A DNA stretch of 64,000 nucleotides from Enterobacteria phage KhF1 (KT184313.1); one strand, 5' to 3'. Counted from the first letter of the stretch, positions 5,478 through 47,005 are shown. Made by a program: numbers and translations. Notes: generated by a model from the sequence alone, not told the origin.

Positions 5478-8177
5478 ATGGAAAACGTAGATTTTAAAAA
5501 CTTACATTTAGTTGGTGATACAGAAACTGATGGTTTACTCCTTGAGTTCACTAAAGTGCACGTAATGGCCTTTGCAGACTATAAATCTGACGATGAAGAG
5601 CCACCTGTATGGGTCTTTACAGATGAACCTATTCTCGGTCACAAGTACACCAAGTACATCAAGGGTGGCTTACGTGAAGGTATTGAGTTTGCGTTAAAGG
5701 CAAAACGTCTTTGCATCCATAATGGTCTCGGTTATGACTGGTGGGTTTTCAATCACATTGCACCTGATTTATGGAACTTTGATAATCCAAAGTGTAAACC
5801 GTGGAGTAATTTCTTTCAGGATTCTCTTATCCAGTCTCGTGTTCAGTGGATGGATAGACCAACTCCAAAGGGTTATAAAGGTGCTCATGGTTTGGCTGCA
5901 TGGGGTGCTCGTGTTGGTGTTCGTAAACCAGAGATTGAACACTGGGGTGTGTGGAATGCAGAAATCTTCACTCGTGTTGTAGAAGATATCCGTATTAACG
6001 CCAAAACTAAACGGGCACTTGATAACGAGTATCTCAAGCTTAAGAAGTGTGGCATAGACACTTATGAAACTTACATGAGAGCTAAAGAGACATCTTTCTG
6101 GATGAGCCAACAAGCTATCAATGGTTGGAAAGCTGATAAAGAGCTTATGGAGTTTCATGTAAAGGAACTTGACAAGTTGACTAATGAGCTTGCTTCAGAG
6201 GTTGAACCACATCTACCTCCAACTATTAAGACCAAAGGTAAAGTCACTGGAGAAGAGTTTGCAAAAGCTTGGAATGAGTATGTTGAAGCATTTGGTCATG
6301 CAGATGGACTGAAAAGAATTACCAAGTACCCTAAGACGAAGTATCGTCAGCAGGTTCGTAATGGTGAGATGCAGACTTACGCTATCAAACCTTTTGGTAA
6401 ACCAACTACCAAGATTTTCAACATTGAGAAGCGGAACTGCTACACTCCAACTAACACAGTTACTGGAGAAGAGTACAAAGAAGGCTTTGTAGCAATGAAG
6501 GATGCTCGTGCAATTTGCAATGAGTTGAATGCAAAGATTGGTAAGAAATGCAAAGACTGGAAGCCAGTAAAAACAGTCAAAACTGTGAAGTACTATAACA
6601 GCCACGTTGTTAACCACTTTGAACTTGAGTCAAGTCGCTACACAGGATTGATTGATGCACCATATACACCAATTGAGTTTGAAGTTTCTCGTATGACTCA
6701 GGTAGCAGTTGTAAAAGACTACTTGAAATCAGTTGGTTGGATTCCAGATGACTGGAACTACAAGAAAGACTCAGACGGTCGCCCTGTCAAAGTTTGTCGT
6801 TTCAAAGACAATAAAAAGATGATTACAAAACATCCTAAGTGGCAGGAGATGGTAGAACGGTGTGGATTGAGTTATGTCGAGCATGAAGGCGTCCAGTACA
6901 TCGAGCATAACTGGTCTGTGAAGAAGTACACAGATTTGCTTGAACCTTGCTTAATCCGTACTTCACCAAAACTTACGGAATCATCTTATGATACGATTGA
7001 AGGTGAGCTTGGACAGAAGATTGCTAAGTACTATACTTTGATGCACAGACGCAGAACTATTGAGAACTCAAAGGATGATGAAAAAGGTTGGTTGAACCAG
7101 ATTCGTCCTGATGGTCGCCTTAGTGCTGGCGCAATGGTGTTTGGTACTTCAACTGGACGTATGACACAATATGGTATTGTAAACGTACCGTCTGGTGCTG
7201 CTGTCTATGGGGAACCAATGAGGGCAGTGTGGATTTGTGAGGAAGGTACTAACGTTGTCTCTGTAGATATGAACTCAGCCCAGCTAGTTCTTCTTTGTAA
7301 CTTTATGGGTGATAAAGAGTTCACCAAAGCGGTAACGCAAGGTAAAGAAGAGATTGAGTTTATTCGTCAAGAAGATGGACGCTATTACTGCAAACATTTT
7401 GATGAGTACCTCAACCCAGAGATTGATAAGTACCTTCGCTATGACTCTGAGAATGACCTGTACGTTGTCTATTCAGGGACTGATGCACATACACTGAACA
7501 GTATTTACTTTAGCTTGAATGATGAGCAGGACATCTTGACTTGTCGAGCTACTCAGGATGAGAATCTTCTTCATGAGATTAGTAAAGGTCGTAAGAAAGC
7601 TAAGAATGGTATCTATGCACTGCTGTTCGGTGCAGGGGATGAGAAGTTTGCTAAGACGATTAAAGCTGCAACTACTCAGGAAGGTGCACTGACTAAACAA
7701 ACTTACTTTATTCGTTTGCCTAAAATTAAGAAGCTACTAGATGACTTGGAAGCTGACTACAAAGCAACTAAAAAGGCACTTGAAGAGGTGTTTGGTAAGA
7801 CTGCTGCAATCTCTAAAGGGGGTTTTGTAAAGGTTGCTGGAGCTTGGTTGTGGTGTAAATCTCCACACAAACTGTTGAACTACCTTTTGATGGGTTCAGA
7901 GGCCCAGATTCAAAATGAGGCAATTAACCTTGCTTGTCGTCGCATGATTGACGAAGGGTTGATGAAGCTAAATGGGCGTAAACCAGCTATAGGTGCTCGC
8001 TTATTGTGCGCATATCACGATGAGACTAGCTGGGAATGTCCAGAGAGTATGACGGCAGAAGTAAAAGCAGTTACTGATTGGTATTACGGGCAAGCTTCTA
8101 AGAACTTAGGTCTTAAGAAAGAAACACTTGTAACTGGTACAGGTAAGGTTGGAAAGAGTTGGCTTGAGGTTCACTGA
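5478..8177 (+). CDS. DNA polymerase, family A, with 3'-5' exonuclease domain
   Basis: Exo motif VGDTETDGL; Pol A motif B RKKAKNGIYALLFGAG; motif C YHDE; start set to ATG at 5478 after GAGGGAG SD. Confidence 0.9.
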   Translation: MENVDFKNLHLVGDTETDGLLLEFTKVHVMAFADYKSDDEEPPVWVFTDEPILGHKYTKYIKGGLREGIEFALKAKRLCIHNGLGYDWWVFNHIAPDLWNFDNPKCKPWSNFFQDSLIQSRVQWMDRPTPKGYKGAHGLAAWGARVGVRKPEIEHWGVWNAEIFTRVVEDIRINAKTKRALDNEYLKLKKCGIDTYETYMRAKETSFWMSQQAINGWKADKELMEFHVKELDKLTNELASEVEPHLPPTIKTKGKVTGEEFAKAWNEYVEAFGHADGLKRITKYPKTKYRQQVRNGEMQTYAIKPFGKPTTKIFNIEKRNCYTPTNTVTGEEYKEGFVAMKDARAICNELNAKIGKKCKDWKPVKTVKTVKYYNSHVVNHFELESSRYTGLIDAPYTPIEFEVSRMTQVAVVKDYLKSVGWIPDDWNYKKDSDGRPVKVCRFKDNKKMITKHPKWQEMVERCGLSYVEHEGVQYIEHNWSVKKYTDLLEPCLIRTSPKLTESSYDTIEGELGQKIAKYYTLMHRRRTIENSKDDEKGWLNQIRPDGRLSAGAMVFGTSTGRMTQYGIVNVPSGAAVYGEPMRAVWICEEGTNVVSVDMNSAQLVLLCNFMGDKEFTKAVTQGKEEIEFIRQEDGRYYCKHFDEYLNPEIDKYLRYDSENDLYVVYSGTDAHTLNSIYFSLNDEQDILTCRATQDENLLHEISKGRKKAKNGIYALLFGAGDEKFAKTIKAATTQEGALTKQTYFIRLPKIKKLLDDLEADYKATKKALEEVFGKTAAISKGGFVKVAGAWLWCKSPHKLLNYLLMGSEAQIQNEAINLACRRMIDEGLMKLNGRKPAIGARLLCAYHDETSWECPESMTAEVKAVTDWYYGQASKNLGLKKETLVTGTGKVGKSWLEVH

Positions 8178-40267: not shown

Positions 40268-40343
40268 TGGAGAATCCGAAGGGACTCGAACCCTTATAAA
40301 CCTGTTTTGCAGACAGGCACATAGCCATTTCTGTCACGGATTC
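40268..40343 (-). tRNA. tRNA-Cys (anticodon GCA)
   Basis: Acceptor GAATCCG/CGGATTC, T-arm AAGGG-TTCGAGT-CCCTT, anticodon loop CTGCAAA, CCA encoded. Confidence 0.7.
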
Positions 40344-43180: not shown

Positions 43181-43438
43181 ATTAAATCTTTTTAGAGAAC
43201 TTCTAAGAACCTAAGCAACAAGGTTCCACAACAAGCTGTAATAACCTTAGAAGCCCTCTAAAAAGACCTAAAAAGGTCTTTGCATAGTCTTGTTTAATCC
43301 GGTGACTAGAACCTTTGGAGAGCTTGATATTATCTCTTCTCCGTGACACCTACTAGGTGCTTTACTGTGCGTGTACGACAATACACGAGGGATACCAAAG
43401 CAACATCCGAATGAAGCTTGGCTTTAAAATCTTATTAG

Positions 43439-43526
43439 GCGGTAAGTAAAGGAGTCGAACCCTCACCGTATCTCTACAGTGGCAACAGTTTTCAAGACTG
43501 TTTGGCTGCCATTAGCCGCTACCTAC
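43439..43526 (-). tRNA. tRNA-Ser (anticodon TGA), long variable arm
   Basis: Acceptor GGTAGGT/ACTTACC, anticodon stem ACAGT/ACTGT, loop CTTGAAA, about 88 nt. Confidence 0.6.
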
Positions 43527-43539
43527 CCCTAATAAGACT

Positions 43540-43622
43540 TTGGCATGGGACGGAGGAGTTGAACCCCTTTGAAACGGTTTTGGAGGCCGTTGCTCATGCC
43601 TTAGAGTCTTAACATCGTCCCA
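43540..43622 (-). tRNA. tRNA, atypical; possibly tRNA-Trp (anticodon CCA) with extended D region
   Basis: Acceptor GTGGGAC/GTCCCAT, T-loop TTCAACT, candidate anticodon loop CTCCAAA; about 8 extra nt in D region. Confidence 0.45.
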
Positions 43623-43774
43623 CACTATAATTCGAAGCTTACCCTATTATCTCAACACTGTAAAGCCCCTTCTCAGATTATTTACATGTTCTGGAAAACA
43701 TGAGATACAGACCACCTCCCTACAGGAAGACCCGCTTAGGTCGTATAAGTAATCTGCTAACTATTTGGCACACC

Positions 43775-43842: not shown

Positions 43843-44088
43843 ATTAATCTTTAAAGACTCTCTTAGAAAGCCCTTAAAGATGCCCACCTTATTAATCATA
43901 CCGTGGGCGAGTACGCCAAATTCTTTGATGAGGGATTGGAAGACCTCACTGGTGTTTAGCCTATCAAGCTACTGCCAGAAAAACATTGTCGTTTGCATTT
44001 ATTTTAAATTTGCAAAATAGACGCTACGCAACGAAAACTAAGGTTACTATAAAGTGGTCACATCTCAATGTCAACAACTTTATTGAAA

Positions 44089-44164
44089 TTGGTACTGGTA
44101 GGTGGAATCGAACCACCGATGTTCCCTTATCAGGGGAGTGTTATAACCTTCTTAACTATACCAG
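44089..44164 (-). tRNA. tRNA-Ile (anticodon GAT)
   Basis: Acceptor GCTGGTA/TACCAGT, T-arm GGTGG-TTCGATT-CCACC, anticodon loop CTGATAA. Confidence 0.7.
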
Positions 44165-44246: not shown

Positions 44247-44322
44247 TTGGTAGAAGTGGAGGGATTCGAACCCATCGCCTGTCAGATTAAAAGTCTGCCG
44301 CATCACCATTCTGCTACACTTC
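44247..44322 (-). tRNA. tRNA-Lys (anticodon TTT)
   Basis: Acceptor GGAAGTG/CACTTCT, T-loop TTCGAAT, anticodon loop CTTTTAA. Confidence 0.6.
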
Positions 44323-44325
44323 CAT

Positions 44326-44469
44326 TAAATTATCTTTGTAGATAAGCTACCCAGACTTGCTTAAGGTCTGTAGCGATGTGCCTTGTTGGGTTTAAATCTA
44401 GAATTTACCCTTTCACCCTTTGTGGTCGCATACTCACAGGTAAGCTTAATAACTTATCTACAAAGATAA
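44326..44469. repeat. 19-bp perfect inverted repeat pair (AATTATCTTTGTAGATAAG) enclosing about 106 nt
   Basis: Arms at about 44326-44344 and 44451-44469 are exact reverse complements. Confidence 0.6.
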
Positions 44470-44470
44470 T

Positions 44471-44602
44471 TACCAGACCGTTGTTTATCATCTTAAGTGC
44501 TACCATTACACCAACTCGACATCTGCCGAGTGAAGGAATCGAACCTTCGCCTTTTCTTTACCGAGAAATAGATTGTTTAAGTTTTGCTGTAAACGGTCTT
44601 CT
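44471..44602 (-). ncRNA. tRNA-like domain in permuted (Y RNA-like / YrlA-like) arrangement inside a long closing stem
   Basis: On minus strand: T-arm GAAGG-TTCGATT-CCTTC, acceptor-like 7-bp helix ACTCGGC/GTCGAGT capped by a 4-nt loop, D-arm GTGT-AATGGTA-GCAC, CTTAA/TTAAG helix, outer stem AGACCGTT/AACGGTCT. Confidence 0.45.
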
Positions 44603-44615
44603 GTAAATTTGTTGA

Positions 44616-44691
44616 GCCAGACCAAGTTTTAAATTTTTCAAAATTAAATTGGCTTGAAATTTTCATACGTTCTTGCTGTATTTGGTCTTCT
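44616..44691 (-). repeat. spacer hairpin element, family member 2 (CCAGACCAA ... TTGGTCTTCTG)
   Basis: Same conserved arms and TTGCTGTA block as 44471..44602 but AT-rich interior. Confidence 0.5.
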
Positions 44692-44752
44692 GCTCCTTTA
44701 AAGGATACTCGTAAGAACCCTTTAAGGGAGGGGCTAAATAGCCCTCTCAAAA

Positions 44753-44829
44753 TTGGCGGCTACGATGAGACTTGAACTCACATCATCTCCCGTGACAGGG
44801 GAGTATTTTCTCCAGTTAAACTACATAGC
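44753..44829 (-). tRNA. tRNA-Asp (anticodon GTC)
   Basis: Acceptor GGCTATG/CGTAGCC, T-loop TTCAAGT, anticodon stem CTCCC/GGGAG, loop CTGTCAC. Confidence 0.7.
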
Positions 44830-44834
44830 CTTTA

Positions 44835-44922
44835 TTGGTGTGCCGTGTAGGAGTCGAACCTACCGAGTCTCAATGACAAGGGATTTACAGTCCCCACCGC
44901 TACCATCTACGGGATAACGACA
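44835..44922 (-). tRNA. tRNA-Tyr (anticodon GTA), long variable arm
   Basis: Acceptor GTGTCGT/ACGGCAC, T-arm GTAGG-TTCGACT-CCTAC, anticodon loop CTGTAAA. Confidence 0.65.
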
Positions 44923-44930
44923 CATTTAAT

Positions 44931-45007
44931 TTGGCGGTTAGTCAGGGATTCGAACCCTGTGCCATTCGCTTAACAGGCGACCGCACATACCTTATGTGCT
45001 TCCTAAC
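44931..45007 (-). tRNA. tRNA-Asn (anticodon GTT)
   Basis: T-arm CAGGG-TTCGAAT-CCCTG, anticodon loop CTGTTAA. Confidence 0.65.
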
Positions 45008-45020
45008 CATGTTTAGTATT

Positions 45021-45085
45021 ACCAGACCGTATATTTCAATTTTTTCCGCTAAAAATTTAATAAATATTGCTGTAAACGGTCTTCT
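45021..45085 (-). repeat. spacer hairpin element, family member 3 (CCAGACCGT ... AACGGTCTTCTG)
   Basis: Conserved arms and TTGCTGTAAACGGTCTTCTGTAAA block. Confidence 0.5.
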
Positions 45086-45091
45086 GTAAAT

Positions 45092-45167
45092 TTGGAGGCG
45101 GGTGCAGGAGTCGAACCTGCCGATACCATGCTAATGAGACATGTGAGACGCCCTTTCTCTATACCCG
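45092..45167 (-). tRNA. tRNA with anticodon CAT, copy 2 (initiator, elongator Met or Ile2 undetermined)
   Basis: T-arm GCAGG-TTCGACT-CCTGC, anticodon stem CATGT/GCATG, loop CTCATTA. Confidence 0.6.
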
Positions 45168-45179
45168 CAATTCTTAATG

Positions 45180-45251
45180 ACCAGACCAAATATCTTCTTT
45201 GTCCGATTAACTTTCAGATGAGTAGATTAAGTTTGCTGTAATTGGTCTTCT
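45180..45251 (-). repeat. spacer hairpin element, family member 4 (CCAGACCAA ... TTGGTCTTCTG)
   Basis: Conserved arms and TTGCTGTAATTGGTCTTCTG block. Confidence 0.5.
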
Positions 45252-45258
45252 GTCAAAA

Positions 45259-45336
45259 CTGGCGTTCCAGAAGGGATTTGAACCCTCAAATATCCACTTT
45301 GAAAGAGTGGTGACTTTACCATTTTGTCTACTGGAA
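45259..45336 (-). tRNA. tRNA-Glu (anticodon TTC)
   Basis: Acceptor GTTCCAG/CTGGAAC, anticodon stem CCACT/AGTGG, loop CTTTCAA. Confidence 0.7.
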
Positions 45337-45343
45337 CATTAAT

Positions 45344-45423
45344 TTGGTCTCCGTTGAAGGATTTGAACCCTCGACCCCTTGCTCCCAAAGCAAGTGCTGC
45401 TAAACCAAACTGAGCTAAACGGA
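45344..45423 (-). tRNA. tRNA-Pro (anticodon TGG)
   Basis: Acceptor CTCCGTT/AACGGAG, anticodon stem CTTGC/GCAAG, loop TTTGGGA. Confidence 0.7.
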
Positions 45424-45542
45424 GATAAACTTTTCAAACTCTATGTAACCACTTTAACATTATTTTTTAGTGATTGTCAAGAACTTTTTTAAAATATTTT
45501 TCAGTATCTTAGAAAAGCTCTCATTTCGTTTCTATGTAGAAC

Positions 45543-45589: not shown

Positions 45590-47005
45590 TTACCAGATAT
45601 AACGGTCAATCATTACTGCTTTGAGCATTACACTGATTGGGTCAAACTTCTCACCACCAAGCAGAGCTTTTAAAGTGGCTGGAGAGAACCCTGATACCAT
45701 TGCTACACCGTTATCCTTAACAGATACTTCGCAAGTACCATTACGGTTTGCTAAGTACCAGAATACCAGTTGTGGCATCTCATATCCAGCTTTTTTGTAC
45801 TTACTCTGAATTGCTTCAAAGTTTGTACGTCCGTTAGCTCCATCAACCTGATTGAACTCCATATCGGAGAAGATGATAAGCTTACTTGGCATATCTTTCT
45901 GAGTCAAGTTGTTTCTTTTACCTGTTTCAAGAATGCGGTCAAAAGCTGCTTGTAAGTTAGTTGAGCCATATTCAACGTGTCGCATCACCTGACGATGACG
46001 GTTTCGTAAATCACCACTCAATTCGATGAAATGAGGGTTTGTTGAATAAACCATTAACTCGTTCTTAAAGCAACCTGTATTGCGTTCTGCTACATACAAG
46101 GCAAGGGATACACCAATATCAAGGGCAGTGATTGAACCAAGATTCACCCAAGACATTGAGCTTGAAACATCAGTCATACACAGGATGTTTTCACCTTCTG
46201 CCATCCAGTTTGGTAGTGCTTTCCACTGCTCATTAGCAACATCTGCATTACCATACTTGATAGATTTAATCACATCGTATGGATAAACAGCACCAGCATT
46301 AATCTTAGTCTCGCCCTTTGATAAGGACTCAATGTAAGATTTGTAGCGTTCTCCATCTTTACGGTTAAAGAGTTTTTGGTAACGTGCAGCAGCAAGTGAA
46401 GGAATCTTACTGTAGTCGATATTACCAAACTCATTAGCAGAGATTTTTTGTTCAACTGTATCAGATAGTGCAGACAGCAGTGTGCGGTACTCTTTCTCAC
46501 TCAAGTTTGCAAACTTGCAGAAACGTTTTACAAACTGTTTGTGACGTGGTTTTACTCGTGGTAACCACTTAGCTGCTAAACCTGCTGTTGCAGGGTCTAG
46601 TAATGCTGCTTCTAAATGTTTGAAGGCATCTGTCTCGAAACGAGTACCTACAAAGATTTTGAAGTCATCAAAGCGACCAAGCTCTGCAATCTTATCCATA
46701 ATGCGAAGAACCTGCGTAGGTTCTAAAACTTTATCTTCAATCGCTTGAAGTAAAACAGTTCGGAAAGCTTTACGCTCACCCATACCTTCTCGTACATCTC
46801 GCATATGCAGTAAAATACGAACTGCAACATCAACATCCTCATGCAAAGCTTTGTATAACAAGTCTGGTAAGATTTCTACATTGCTACGGCTGGAACCAGC
46901 AGCTTTGTAAAAGTCCACAAGAGCAGACATTGATGAAGTATGGTTTACAGCACCATTTTCAGTTCGACCTGCATGAAGGTGCGCATGTTTAAATAATTCG
47001 CTCAT
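45590..47005 (-). CDS. von Willebrand factor A (MIDAS) domain protein with N-terminal helical domain
   Basis: MIDAS-like DVSSSM (DxSxS) at about residue 275 and downstream IIFSDMEF; N-terminal 270 aa unassigned. Confidence 0.65.
   Translation of the reverse strand: MSELFKHAHLHAGRTENGAVNHTSSMSALVDFYKAAGSSRSNVEILPDLLYKALHEDVDVAVRILLHMRDVREGMGERKAFRTVLLQAIEDKVLEPTQVLRIMDKIAELGRFDDFKIFVGTRFETDAFKHLEAALLDPATAGLAAKWLPRVKPRHKQFVKRFCKFANLSEKEYRTLLSALSDTVEQKISANEFGNIDYSKIPSLAAARYQKLFNRKDGERYKSYIESLSKGETKINAGAVYPYDVIKSIKYGNADVANEQWKALPNWMAEGENILCMTDVSSSMSWVNLGSITALDIGVSLALYVAERNTGCFKNELMVYSTNPHFIELSGDLRNRHRQVMRHVEYGSTNLQAAFDRILETGKRNNLTQKDMPSKLIIFSDMEFNQVDGANGRTNFEAIQSKYKKAGYEMPQLVFWYLANRNGTCEVSVKDNGVAMVSGFSPATLKALLGGEKFDPISVMLKAVMIDRYIW

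Follow-up and report, generated by a model that had tools for sequence, protein, structure and literature searches.

A tRNA-mimicking element and three short relatives as probable Y-like RNAs beside the Ro60-like gene of Enterobacteria phage KhF1

The transfer RNA (tRNA) cluster of Enterobacteria phage KhF1 (KT184313.1), contained in the 64,000-nucleotide stretch analysed here (the window), is that of a Felix-O1-type phage (Felixounavirus) and comprises 26 tRNA genes according to ARAGORN, all on the minus strand between positions 40268 and 45424. Four spacer elements, termed A to D, are interleaved with the genes for tRNA-Pro, Glu, Met, Asn, Tyr and Asp (44754..45424, minus), and element A is followed, after a further spacer, by tRNA-Lys (44248-44323, minus). 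Upstream on the same strand lies a gene for a protein of 471 amino acids (45590..47005, minus), carrying the Pfam domains DUF2828 and DUF7788, a match to PHROG 850 ‘RNA-binding protein’ and the MIDAS (metal-ion-dependent adhesion site) motif DxSxS, for which a Ro60 fold is predicted. The distance from the end of this gene to element D is 334 nt, and the elements together occupy the region 334-1121 nt downstream of it. As is typical of Y RNAs in bacteria and phages, they are thus located near a Ro60-fold gene and on its strand, and we consider it likely that A to D are Y-like small RNAs and the cognate ligands of the upstream Ro60-like protein. The 3-kb stretch around them is 95-97% identical to that of many Escherichia and Salmonella phages of Felixounavirus, and an 831-nt stretch is covered to at least 80% in 237 phage records (83-99.9% identity), which bears out the conservation in related genomes on which a preliminary description of these spacers had made its proposal depend.

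On the minus strand, which is the tRNA sense, the elements share the arms 5'-CAGAAGACC(G/A)nnUACAGCAA ... (C/U)GGUCUGG-3'. From first to last arm base the cores extend over 44473-44603 (A), 44617-44692 (B), 45022-45086 (C) and 45181-45252 (D), and with their outer helices over 44469-44607, 44613-44696, 45018-45090 and 45177-45256, respectively. The preliminary description had recognised a four-member family with shared arms, and all four members are present with limits that differ by at most one base. The 5' arm pattern CAGAAGACCRNNTACAGCAA (20 nt, up to three mismatches) has exactly four matches in the window, all on the minus strand, compared to 0.12 expected from shuffled sequences, none of which reached four; the similarity is therefore well above chance. 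The 3' arm octamer YGGTCTGG is likewise enriched (nine occurrences versus 1.7 expected). When a descriptor taken from other phages (a NACAGCAA box, 7 bp or more of helix in a fixed register, and a 3' G) was run on the window, only elements A to D were returned in the 128 kb searched (null expectation 0.09), and neither the pattern scan nor the descriptor scan gave any further copy in the 64 kb.

The minimum free energy structures obtained with RNAfold show one closing architecture in all four elements: a 4-bp outer helix, an internal loop of AGA on the 5' side and G on the 3' side, and a 7-8-bp inner helix of the form AGACC(G/A)n/n(C/U)GGUCU, directly after whose 5' strand follows a single-stranded box, UACAGCAA, which holds ACAGCAA. 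The capacity of the arms to pair, as originally proposed, is thereby recovered, and the 5' and 3' ends of each element form a stem broken by an internal loop, as do those of Y RNAs. The outer helices vary yet pair (UUAC/GUAA in A and C, UGAC/GUCA in D, GAGC/GCUC in B), and the inner helices also differ between copies while remaining paired, the G/A at position 10 of the 5' arm covarying with the C/U at the start of the 3' arm. Also as described before, three elements have short AT-rich interiors, here with a small hairpin, and the first encloses a tRNA-like domain, in which the Rfam tRNA model recognises the T arm only. Element D (80 nt, 45177..45256, minus) has the inner helix AGACCAA/UUGGUCU, the box at 45232-45239 and a variable hairpin interior; it lies 3 nt past tRNA-Glu and 7 nt ahead of tRNA-Met, and scores 34.5 bits with a covariance model (R1). 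Element C (73 nt, 45018..45090, minus; inner helix AGACCGU/ACGGUCU, box at 45066-45073) lies 2 nt past tRNA-Met and 9 nt ahead of tRNA-Asn and scores 45.9 bits with the same model (E 1e-7). Element B (84 nt, 44613..44696, minus; inner helix AGACCAA/UUGGUCU, box at 44672-44679) is situated 57 nt past tRNA-Asp and 5 nt ahead of element A. It was not recovered by the covariance model built from element A, so that its place in the family comes from the motif and descriptor searches, and it is missing from several close relatives.

In relatives, one-sided substitutions in the inner helix (AGGCCAA, AGACUGU and AGACCGA opposite UUGGUCU or ACGGUCU) keep the pairing only via G-U pairs on the minus strand. 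This sequence pattern points to a selection acting on RNA rather than on inverted repeats in DNA, and it bears on the suggestion that the elements are a small mobile or recombinogenic family, resembling miniature inverted-repeat transposable elements, which shuffles tRNA cassettes. Arms of 20 identical nucleotides common to copies would fit such a family, as would the fact that the copy number and the tRNA content between copies differ among relatives; the identical 20-nt arms of A and C could mediate deletion or duplication of the tRNAs between them. However, the inverted repeats measure just 7-8 bp and covary from one lineage to the next around a constant box, neither a transposase gene nor a target-site duplication was seen, and the copies are confined within the window to these four places. 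Moreover, the elements and their counterparts elsewhere occur beside a single gene family and on one strand relative to it (72 versus 4, see below). A mobile family, which had been among the options first put forward, leaves this strict strandedness, the G-U-tolerant helix changes and the fixed single-stranded box unaccounted for, and is very improbable.

Element A (139 nt, 44469..44607, minus) is the largest of the four. Its outer helix pairs 44603-44606 with 44470-44473, the AGA loop occupies 44600-44602, the inner helix pairs 44592-44599 with 44475-44482, and the box is found at 44584-44591. Within this frame follow, in the sense direction, a V hairpin (44553-44568), a T arm, GAAGG-UUCGAUU-CCUUC (44532-44548), an acceptor-like stem-loop of 7 bp with a 4-nt loop, ACUCGGC-AGAU-GUCGAGU (44514-44531), and a D arm, GUGU-AAUGGUA-GCAC, preceded by a U resembling U8 of tRNA (44497-44511). 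The interior is folded by RNAfold as a cloverleaf-like four-way junction that lacks an anticodon arm, the closing stem taking the position of the anticodon stem, and its order is that of a tRNA 3' half followed by a tRNA 5' half. The Rfam tRNA score of the T arm is 14.9 bits, ARAGORN calls no tRNA in elements A to D, which hold no complete cloverleaf, and Rfam scans of the region returned only tRNAs and, for the elements themselves, sub-threshold noise. The tRNA-like domain of the YrlA class of Y RNAs is composed in this way, with a closed acceptor-like stem separating the T and D arms and a V arm located upstream. In several other lineages of our comparison (loci L006 5146-5294, L024 3369-3515 and 3743-3887, L018 6453-6584) the acceptor-like loop starts with a discriminator base and CCA, as if a tRNA 3' end were linked shortly to a tRNA 5' end, and a cut by RNase P in this loop would give a nicked, two-piece tRNA mimic; element A has AGAU there.

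Nine Ounavirinae copies of element A, and no other sequences, went into a covariance model that gave full-length sense-strand matches beside distant DUF2828 genes, at 56 bits in locus L076, 54 and 38 bits in L024, 51 bits in Klebsiella phage FBKp34 and 31 bits in Mycobacterium phage Lolly9, while true tRNAs gave partial matches only, below 21 bits. As a MAFFT alignment of the tRNA-like modules across phyla was unreliable, a model-guided alignment of 20 matches was used instead. In this alignment 94.1% of the cells pair, versus 66.7% after shuffling and about 40% in controls with slid partners; two-sided changes are found in 32 of 38 pairs, a number reached in none of 500 shuffles, and the covariation score is 0.346 versus 0.03-0.06 with slid partners. 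Pairing reaches 100% in the T, acceptor-like and D helices (11-12 sequences, compensatory changes included), and the closing helices are 94-95% paired across phages, with changes on both sides. Within the Ounavirinae alone the acceptor-like stem exists as three unrelated sequences, each fully paired. The possibility that A to D are decayed tRNA remnants, for instance of a deletion across a tandem tRNA pair, accompanied by chance hairpins, has to be weighed against these data. The order of a 3' half and then a 5' half in element A would be expected of such a remnant, tandem tRNAs can mimic YrlA models (a caveat given in PMC4201824), and a tandem pair of insert-bearing tRNAs in Cronobacter phage S13 scores 31.7 bits with the element A model. 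Remnants would however not keep the three helices fully paired across phyla through compensatory changes, the helix-plus-box module frames the domain in every case, and the domain is found conserved in over 230 genomes; this origin appears the most improbable of those considered.

The protein encoded upstream would connect these RNAs to the Y RNA world. An AlphaFold model based on 40 homologs has a mean predicted local distance difference test score (pLDDT) of 90, and the top 11 matches of this model in a Foldseek comparison to the PDB are all Ro60 (E 4e-8 to 1e-6), the modelled structure having the Ro60 ring plus von Willebrand factor A (vWA) fold. The likeness to Ro60 is one of fold only, as an NCBIfam search was empty and so were the other sequence searches considered below. 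The DxSxS MIDAS motif of the protein is an invariant one. The ortholog in phage Bas63 is gp130 (bas63_0130), a structurally Ro60-like protein which counters the ppl defence system (2024 preprint, PMC11482910); no RNA partner was named in that work, which suggested only that some annotated tRNA genes might be Y RNAs. Of 50,697 deposited phage genomes, at least 709 encode homologs with DUF2828, some of those in mycobacteriophages being annotated ‘Ro-like RNA binding protein’. A literature search on DUF2828 returned only unrelated plant papers, and no description of RNAs of the A to D type was found in the literature searched, although an earlier mention of the protein as Ro-like, or of its RNAs, is possible. 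The preliminary description missed this Ro60-fold gene next door, the source of the most likely explanation of the elements.

A comparison of 91 loci around DUF2828 genes showed the same module in other phages: a closing helix of any sequence, (N)NCAGCAA right after its 5' strand, and a G after its 3' strand. It is found immediately upstream or downstream of the DUF2828 gene and on the same strand, even where the protein is just 29-51% identical, and the helices have unrelated sequences that still pair. Modules were read directly in Klebsiella phage FBKp34 (four, one of them tRNA-like), Aeromonas phage LAh_6 (five), Cronobacter phage S13, Campylobacter phage F374, Mycobacterium phage Lolly9, Listeria phage LMSP-25 and Enterococcus phage VRE9_2, and in many uncultivated viral contigs, so that the module accompanies the DUF2828 family in phages of at least four bacterial phyla. 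The sequence TACAGCAA occurs in 87 DUF2828 loci 134 times in the gene sense and 10 times in antisense, and for 57% of the unique sense boxes a helix of 7 bp or more stands in the required register, compared to 6.8% in shuffled sequences. When the box was relaxed to NNCAGCAA, 46 of 73 non-Ounavirinae loci had one or more sense modules within 1.5 kb of the gene (72 sense versus 4 antisense modules; shuffles 1-7), and most of the remaining loci have UUCAGCAA or UGCAGCAA variants preceded by AAG or AGG. The heptamer ACAGCAA is invariant in 21 diverse modules. Since MAFFT misplaced the non-conserved 3' strands of 21 short modules, the scripted descriptor with shuffle controls was used in place of a covariance model; the strand and shuffle statistics are independent of the choice of helix. 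We lean, by a narrow measure, towards regarding the helix-plus-CAGCAA module as an undescribed and very widespread RNA family whose members would universally partner the Ro60-like proteins of the DUF2828 branch, in phages of Proteobacteria, Campylobacterota, Firmicutes and Actinobacteria. This would imply that a ribonucleoprotein formed in infected cells couples tRNA-shaped RNAs to a Ro60-type ring, and that the protein is autoregulated. Its settings would comprise free short Y-like RNAs, the frame of permuted tRNA mimics, and grafts into normal tRNAs and into the 5' leader of the mRNA of the protein itself.

The grafts into tRNAs are seen just downstream of the DUF2828 gene in FBKp34 (L003 6003-6116, Asp-GUC) and S13 (L006 4896-5016 and 5026-5138, one Gly-UCC-like). 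These tRNAs have the ordinary topology, and between their D arm and anticodon arm is inserted a hairpin with U(A/U)CAGCA after it (about 38 nt in the tRNA-Asp of FBKp34). This insert is the helix-plus-box module, a triloop capping its outer end. Phages of Campylobacter, Mycobacterium, Listeria, Enterococcus, Klebsiella and Cronobacter have their DUF2828 genes among tRNA genes (L088-L091, L003, L006), and in the Listeria phage a gene annotated ‘tRNA-splicing ligase’ (RtcB-type) is situated 1.3 kb downstream of the DUF2828 gene.

This frequent company of tRNA genes, the distance of only 2-9 nt between elements and tRNA ends, and the long closing stems present in other spacers of the cluster would all suit another function, that of punctuation hairpins at which host RNases separate tRNA sub-clusters, without any relation to the Ro60-like protein. 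However, the module also stands beside DUF2828 genes that have no tRNA annotated within about 3 kb (Aeromonas phage LAh_6, Vibrio phage ValKK3), the 4- and 7-bp helices are too short for RNase III, the other tRNA spacers of the window lack the ACAGCAA box, and neither the conservation of a single-stranded box nor an interior that mimics a tRNA is accounted for. Punctuation as the sole role is consequently unlikely. The processing sites invoked in the preliminary description hold in so far as maturation of the adjoining tRNAs would release the elements, and fail where the module is found beside DUF2828 genes in such surroundings without an annotated tRNA.

In several lineages the DUF2828 gene has a module in its own 5' leader. 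In KVP40-like Vibrio phages (L004 2965-3005, L022 3966-4005) the start codon is within the 3' strand of the module helix and the Shine-Dalgarno sequence in its loop, and in six further loci (L005 2907-2958, L024 3891-3939, L028 3950-3985, L058 3889-3947, L081 3902-3943, L085 3850-3941) the module ends just before GAAAGGA. The position of these leader modules suggests translational autoregulation of the DUF2828 protein and is a hint of direct recognition by it. Modules that abut the Shine-Dalgarno sequence or include the AUG also speak for a purely cis-acting role, in which the elements would be operators where the Ro60-like protein regulates expression, for instance by autorepression, and not free RNAs. 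The copies in the window, however, stand between tRNAs and ahead of no open reading frame (ORF), at a distance of 0.3-1.1 kb downstream from the gene, and as an operator would require the same contact between protein and RNA, this role complements that of a Y-like RNA rather than replacing it. That operators are the whole explanation is quite unlikely.

Among known RNAs, element A is most readily compared to YrlA (RF02553), which has a short conserved motif in its 5' region thought to contact Ro60, an interior running from a V arm through a T arm and an acceptor-like stem-loop to a D arm, and a gene that shares the strand of the Ro60 gene and lies no more than 4 kb from it (Chen et al. 2014, PMC4201824). 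Both have an end-paired stem with a conserved motif on its 5' side, the V, T, acceptor-like, D order without an anticodon arm, and a location within a few kb of a Ro60-type gene on the same strand, and the relatives of element A in FBKp34, L024 and Lolly9 are matched by the Rfam YrlA model at 38-40 bits (E ~1e-5). They differ in that YrlA has the motif GNCGAAN0-1G and a partner with the Pfam domain TROVE, whereas element A has (U)ACAGCAA directly after the 5' strand of the helix and a proposed partner of the DUF2828/DUF7788 type; unlike YrlA, element A is without an Rfam match, its gene is inside a tRNA operon and its acceptor-like loop has just 4 nt. Elements B to D resemble YrlB, metazoan Y RNAs, Deinococcus Yrn1 and the Yrl1 and Yrl2 of Thermus phage phiLo (PMC12135203) in their stem/internal-loop/stem structure with paired ends and a variable effector loop, and in forming several paralogs beside a Ro60 gene. 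In contrast to these short Y RNAs, they lack a GGUCCGA or CGAA motif and do not form separate transcription units, each ending in a terminator of its own. The 3' arm GGUCUG of the Felix-type elements was considered as an equivalent of the metazoan GGUCCGA and rejected, as the helices of other lineages are unrelated to it and the motif is on the opposite stem strand. By analogy, the ACAGCAA box may be the conserved stem-side sequence serving as protein contact, differing from both GGUCCGA and GNCGAAN0-1G.

Two further systems offer partial parallels. The tRNA cluster of phage T4 gives rise to stable RNAs (known as species 1 and 2, or RNAs C and D), structured non-tRNA species that are co-transcribed and co-processed with tRNAs, as A to D would be; T4 is not known to have a DUF2828 gene beside them. 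In the circularly permuted tRNA genes of the red alga Cyanidioschyzon merolae, as in element A, the T arm and 3' acceptor strand (the 3' half) come first and the 5' acceptor strand and D arm (the 5' half) second. Element A differs from these in the missing anticodon arm, in the lack of evidence of circularisation, in its closed-loop junction and in its ends, which form a putative protein-binding stem.

Transcription of the elements could start at either of two strong sigma-70-like promoters located between the Ro60-like gene and tRNA-Pro, TTGACA-17-TAATAT at 45571-45543 (minus) and TTGACA-18-TAAAGT with an upstream TG at 45480-45451 (minus), which, as judged from their sequences, would drive a precursor of tRNAs and Y-like RNAs. 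A consensus scan gave no minus-strand terminator-like site from these promoters through the elements, or in any element. Consensus sites are at chance level in the region (6 versus 5.1 expected), the sole promoter-like site touching an arm being a weak one (9/12) that overlaps the arm of element C, and the promoter or terminator functions initially suggested for the elements are therefore poorly supported.

On these grounds, A to D would be transcribed within the tRNA precursor and freed when RNase P and 3'-end nucleases trim the neighbouring tRNAs, which for D and C are only 2-9 nt away, and the paired ends may protect and stabilise the released RNAs. The bulged closing helix and the ACAGCAA box might then form the dock for the Ro60-like ring, in analogy with the bulged helix of Y RNAs, leaving the variable interiors as effector or gate modules. 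A Y RNA is what tethers polynucleotide phosphorylase (PNPase) to Rsr, and the tRNA mimic of element A could in a similar manner recruit a tRNA-recognising host factor, enzymes or an exoribonuclease such as PNPase, while the short RNAs B to D could regulate access to the cavity of the Ro60-like protein.

A number of observations weigh against this assignment. Expression, processing and binding of the elements are inferred. The Rfam YrlA model gave no match to element A up to E 10, far from its gathering score of 69 bits, and none of the 5' arms of A to D contains GNCGAAN0-1G, whose sole occurrence, GGCGAAGG, is at the T stem of element A. The Ro60-like protein of the window has no match to Pfam TROVE, and sequence and profile searches against the PDB found none. 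The alignment in which the covariation of element A was measured is fitted to the model, the stem in the anticodon position (76% paired) and the V hairpin (83%) are weaker than the other helices, and the descriptor hits were chosen partly by complementarity. The number of elements among closely related phages ranges from one to four (window 44469-45256 versus L002, L007-L021 and L087), B being the one most often missing, so that individual copies are dispensable. Also, gp130 alone, expressed from a plasmid or placed in T7, counters ppl and protects T7, which means that the RNAs are not needed for the sole known phenotype; they may regulate the gp130-type protein or serve another function. Expression of the LeBron homolog on its own is toxic.

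Other parts of the cluster are structured as well. The spacer of about 145-147 nt between element A and tRNA-Lys (44324-44470, minus) is closed by a near-perfect stem of 22-23 bp and contains three internal hairpins (minimum free energy -47 kcal/mol, z -6.45); its counterpart in Shigella phage Sf14 (L001, ~6613-6755) has a closing stem which differs in sequence and still pairs, and the spacer may form a further structured RNA, or serve as a substrate of RNase III. At 43540-43628 (minus) lies a cloverleaf-like RNA uncalled by ARAGORN, with an Rfam tRNA-Sec score of 23 bits, a 10-bp acceptor-type stem and the 9-nt loop CCUCCAAAA, which could be an aberrant tRNA-like gene; ARAGORN calls no tRNA-Trp in the phage, and relatives carry a ‘tRNA-OTHER’ or ‘tRNA-Pseudo’ annotation somewhere in the 3-kb stretch. 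Strongly structured spacers are also found at 43843-43890 (minus), 43182-43271 and 43426-43541, none of them with the ACAGCAA box; their features are a perfect hairpin of 16 bp immediately 5' of tRNA-Arg(tct) (z -5.0), an inverted repeat of 26 nt past tRNA-Leu(tag) and complementary 14-nt arms around tRNA-Ser(tga). Inside the cluster, just past tRNA-Ile, is a sigma-70-like promoter matching 11 of 12 consensus positions (44046-44074, minus), and 43964-44148 (minus) gives a weak match to permuted transfer-messenger RNA (29.6 bits; gathering score 47). In Bas63 (L087 2944-3218) the hypothetical ORFs bas63_0137 and bas63_0138 run over elements A and B on the opposite strand, and in the window ORFs at 44376-44606 (plus) and 44577-44750 (minus) overlap elements, while some short ORFs of the stretch overlap tRNA genes; the short ORFs across A and B are probably spurious.

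Ro60 and its Y RNAs form a conserved and poorly understood RNA-surveillance system. The signature of A to D, a helix plus the ACAGCAA box, is distinct from that of known Y RNAs, and the set consists of one YrlA-like tRNA mimic and three short RNAs. Candidate RNA partners are thereby pinpointed for the Bas63 gp130-type protein in unannotated spacers between tRNA genes, often mis-annotated as opposite-strand ORFs, and the partnership of A to D with the Ro60-like protein becomes directly testable. The simple and conserved signature may also serve as an annotation rule for hundreds of genomes. If the elements are Y-like RNAs, as seems likely, the tRNA mimicry of Y RNAs would extend to a second, sequence-unrelated branch of Ro60-like proteins.

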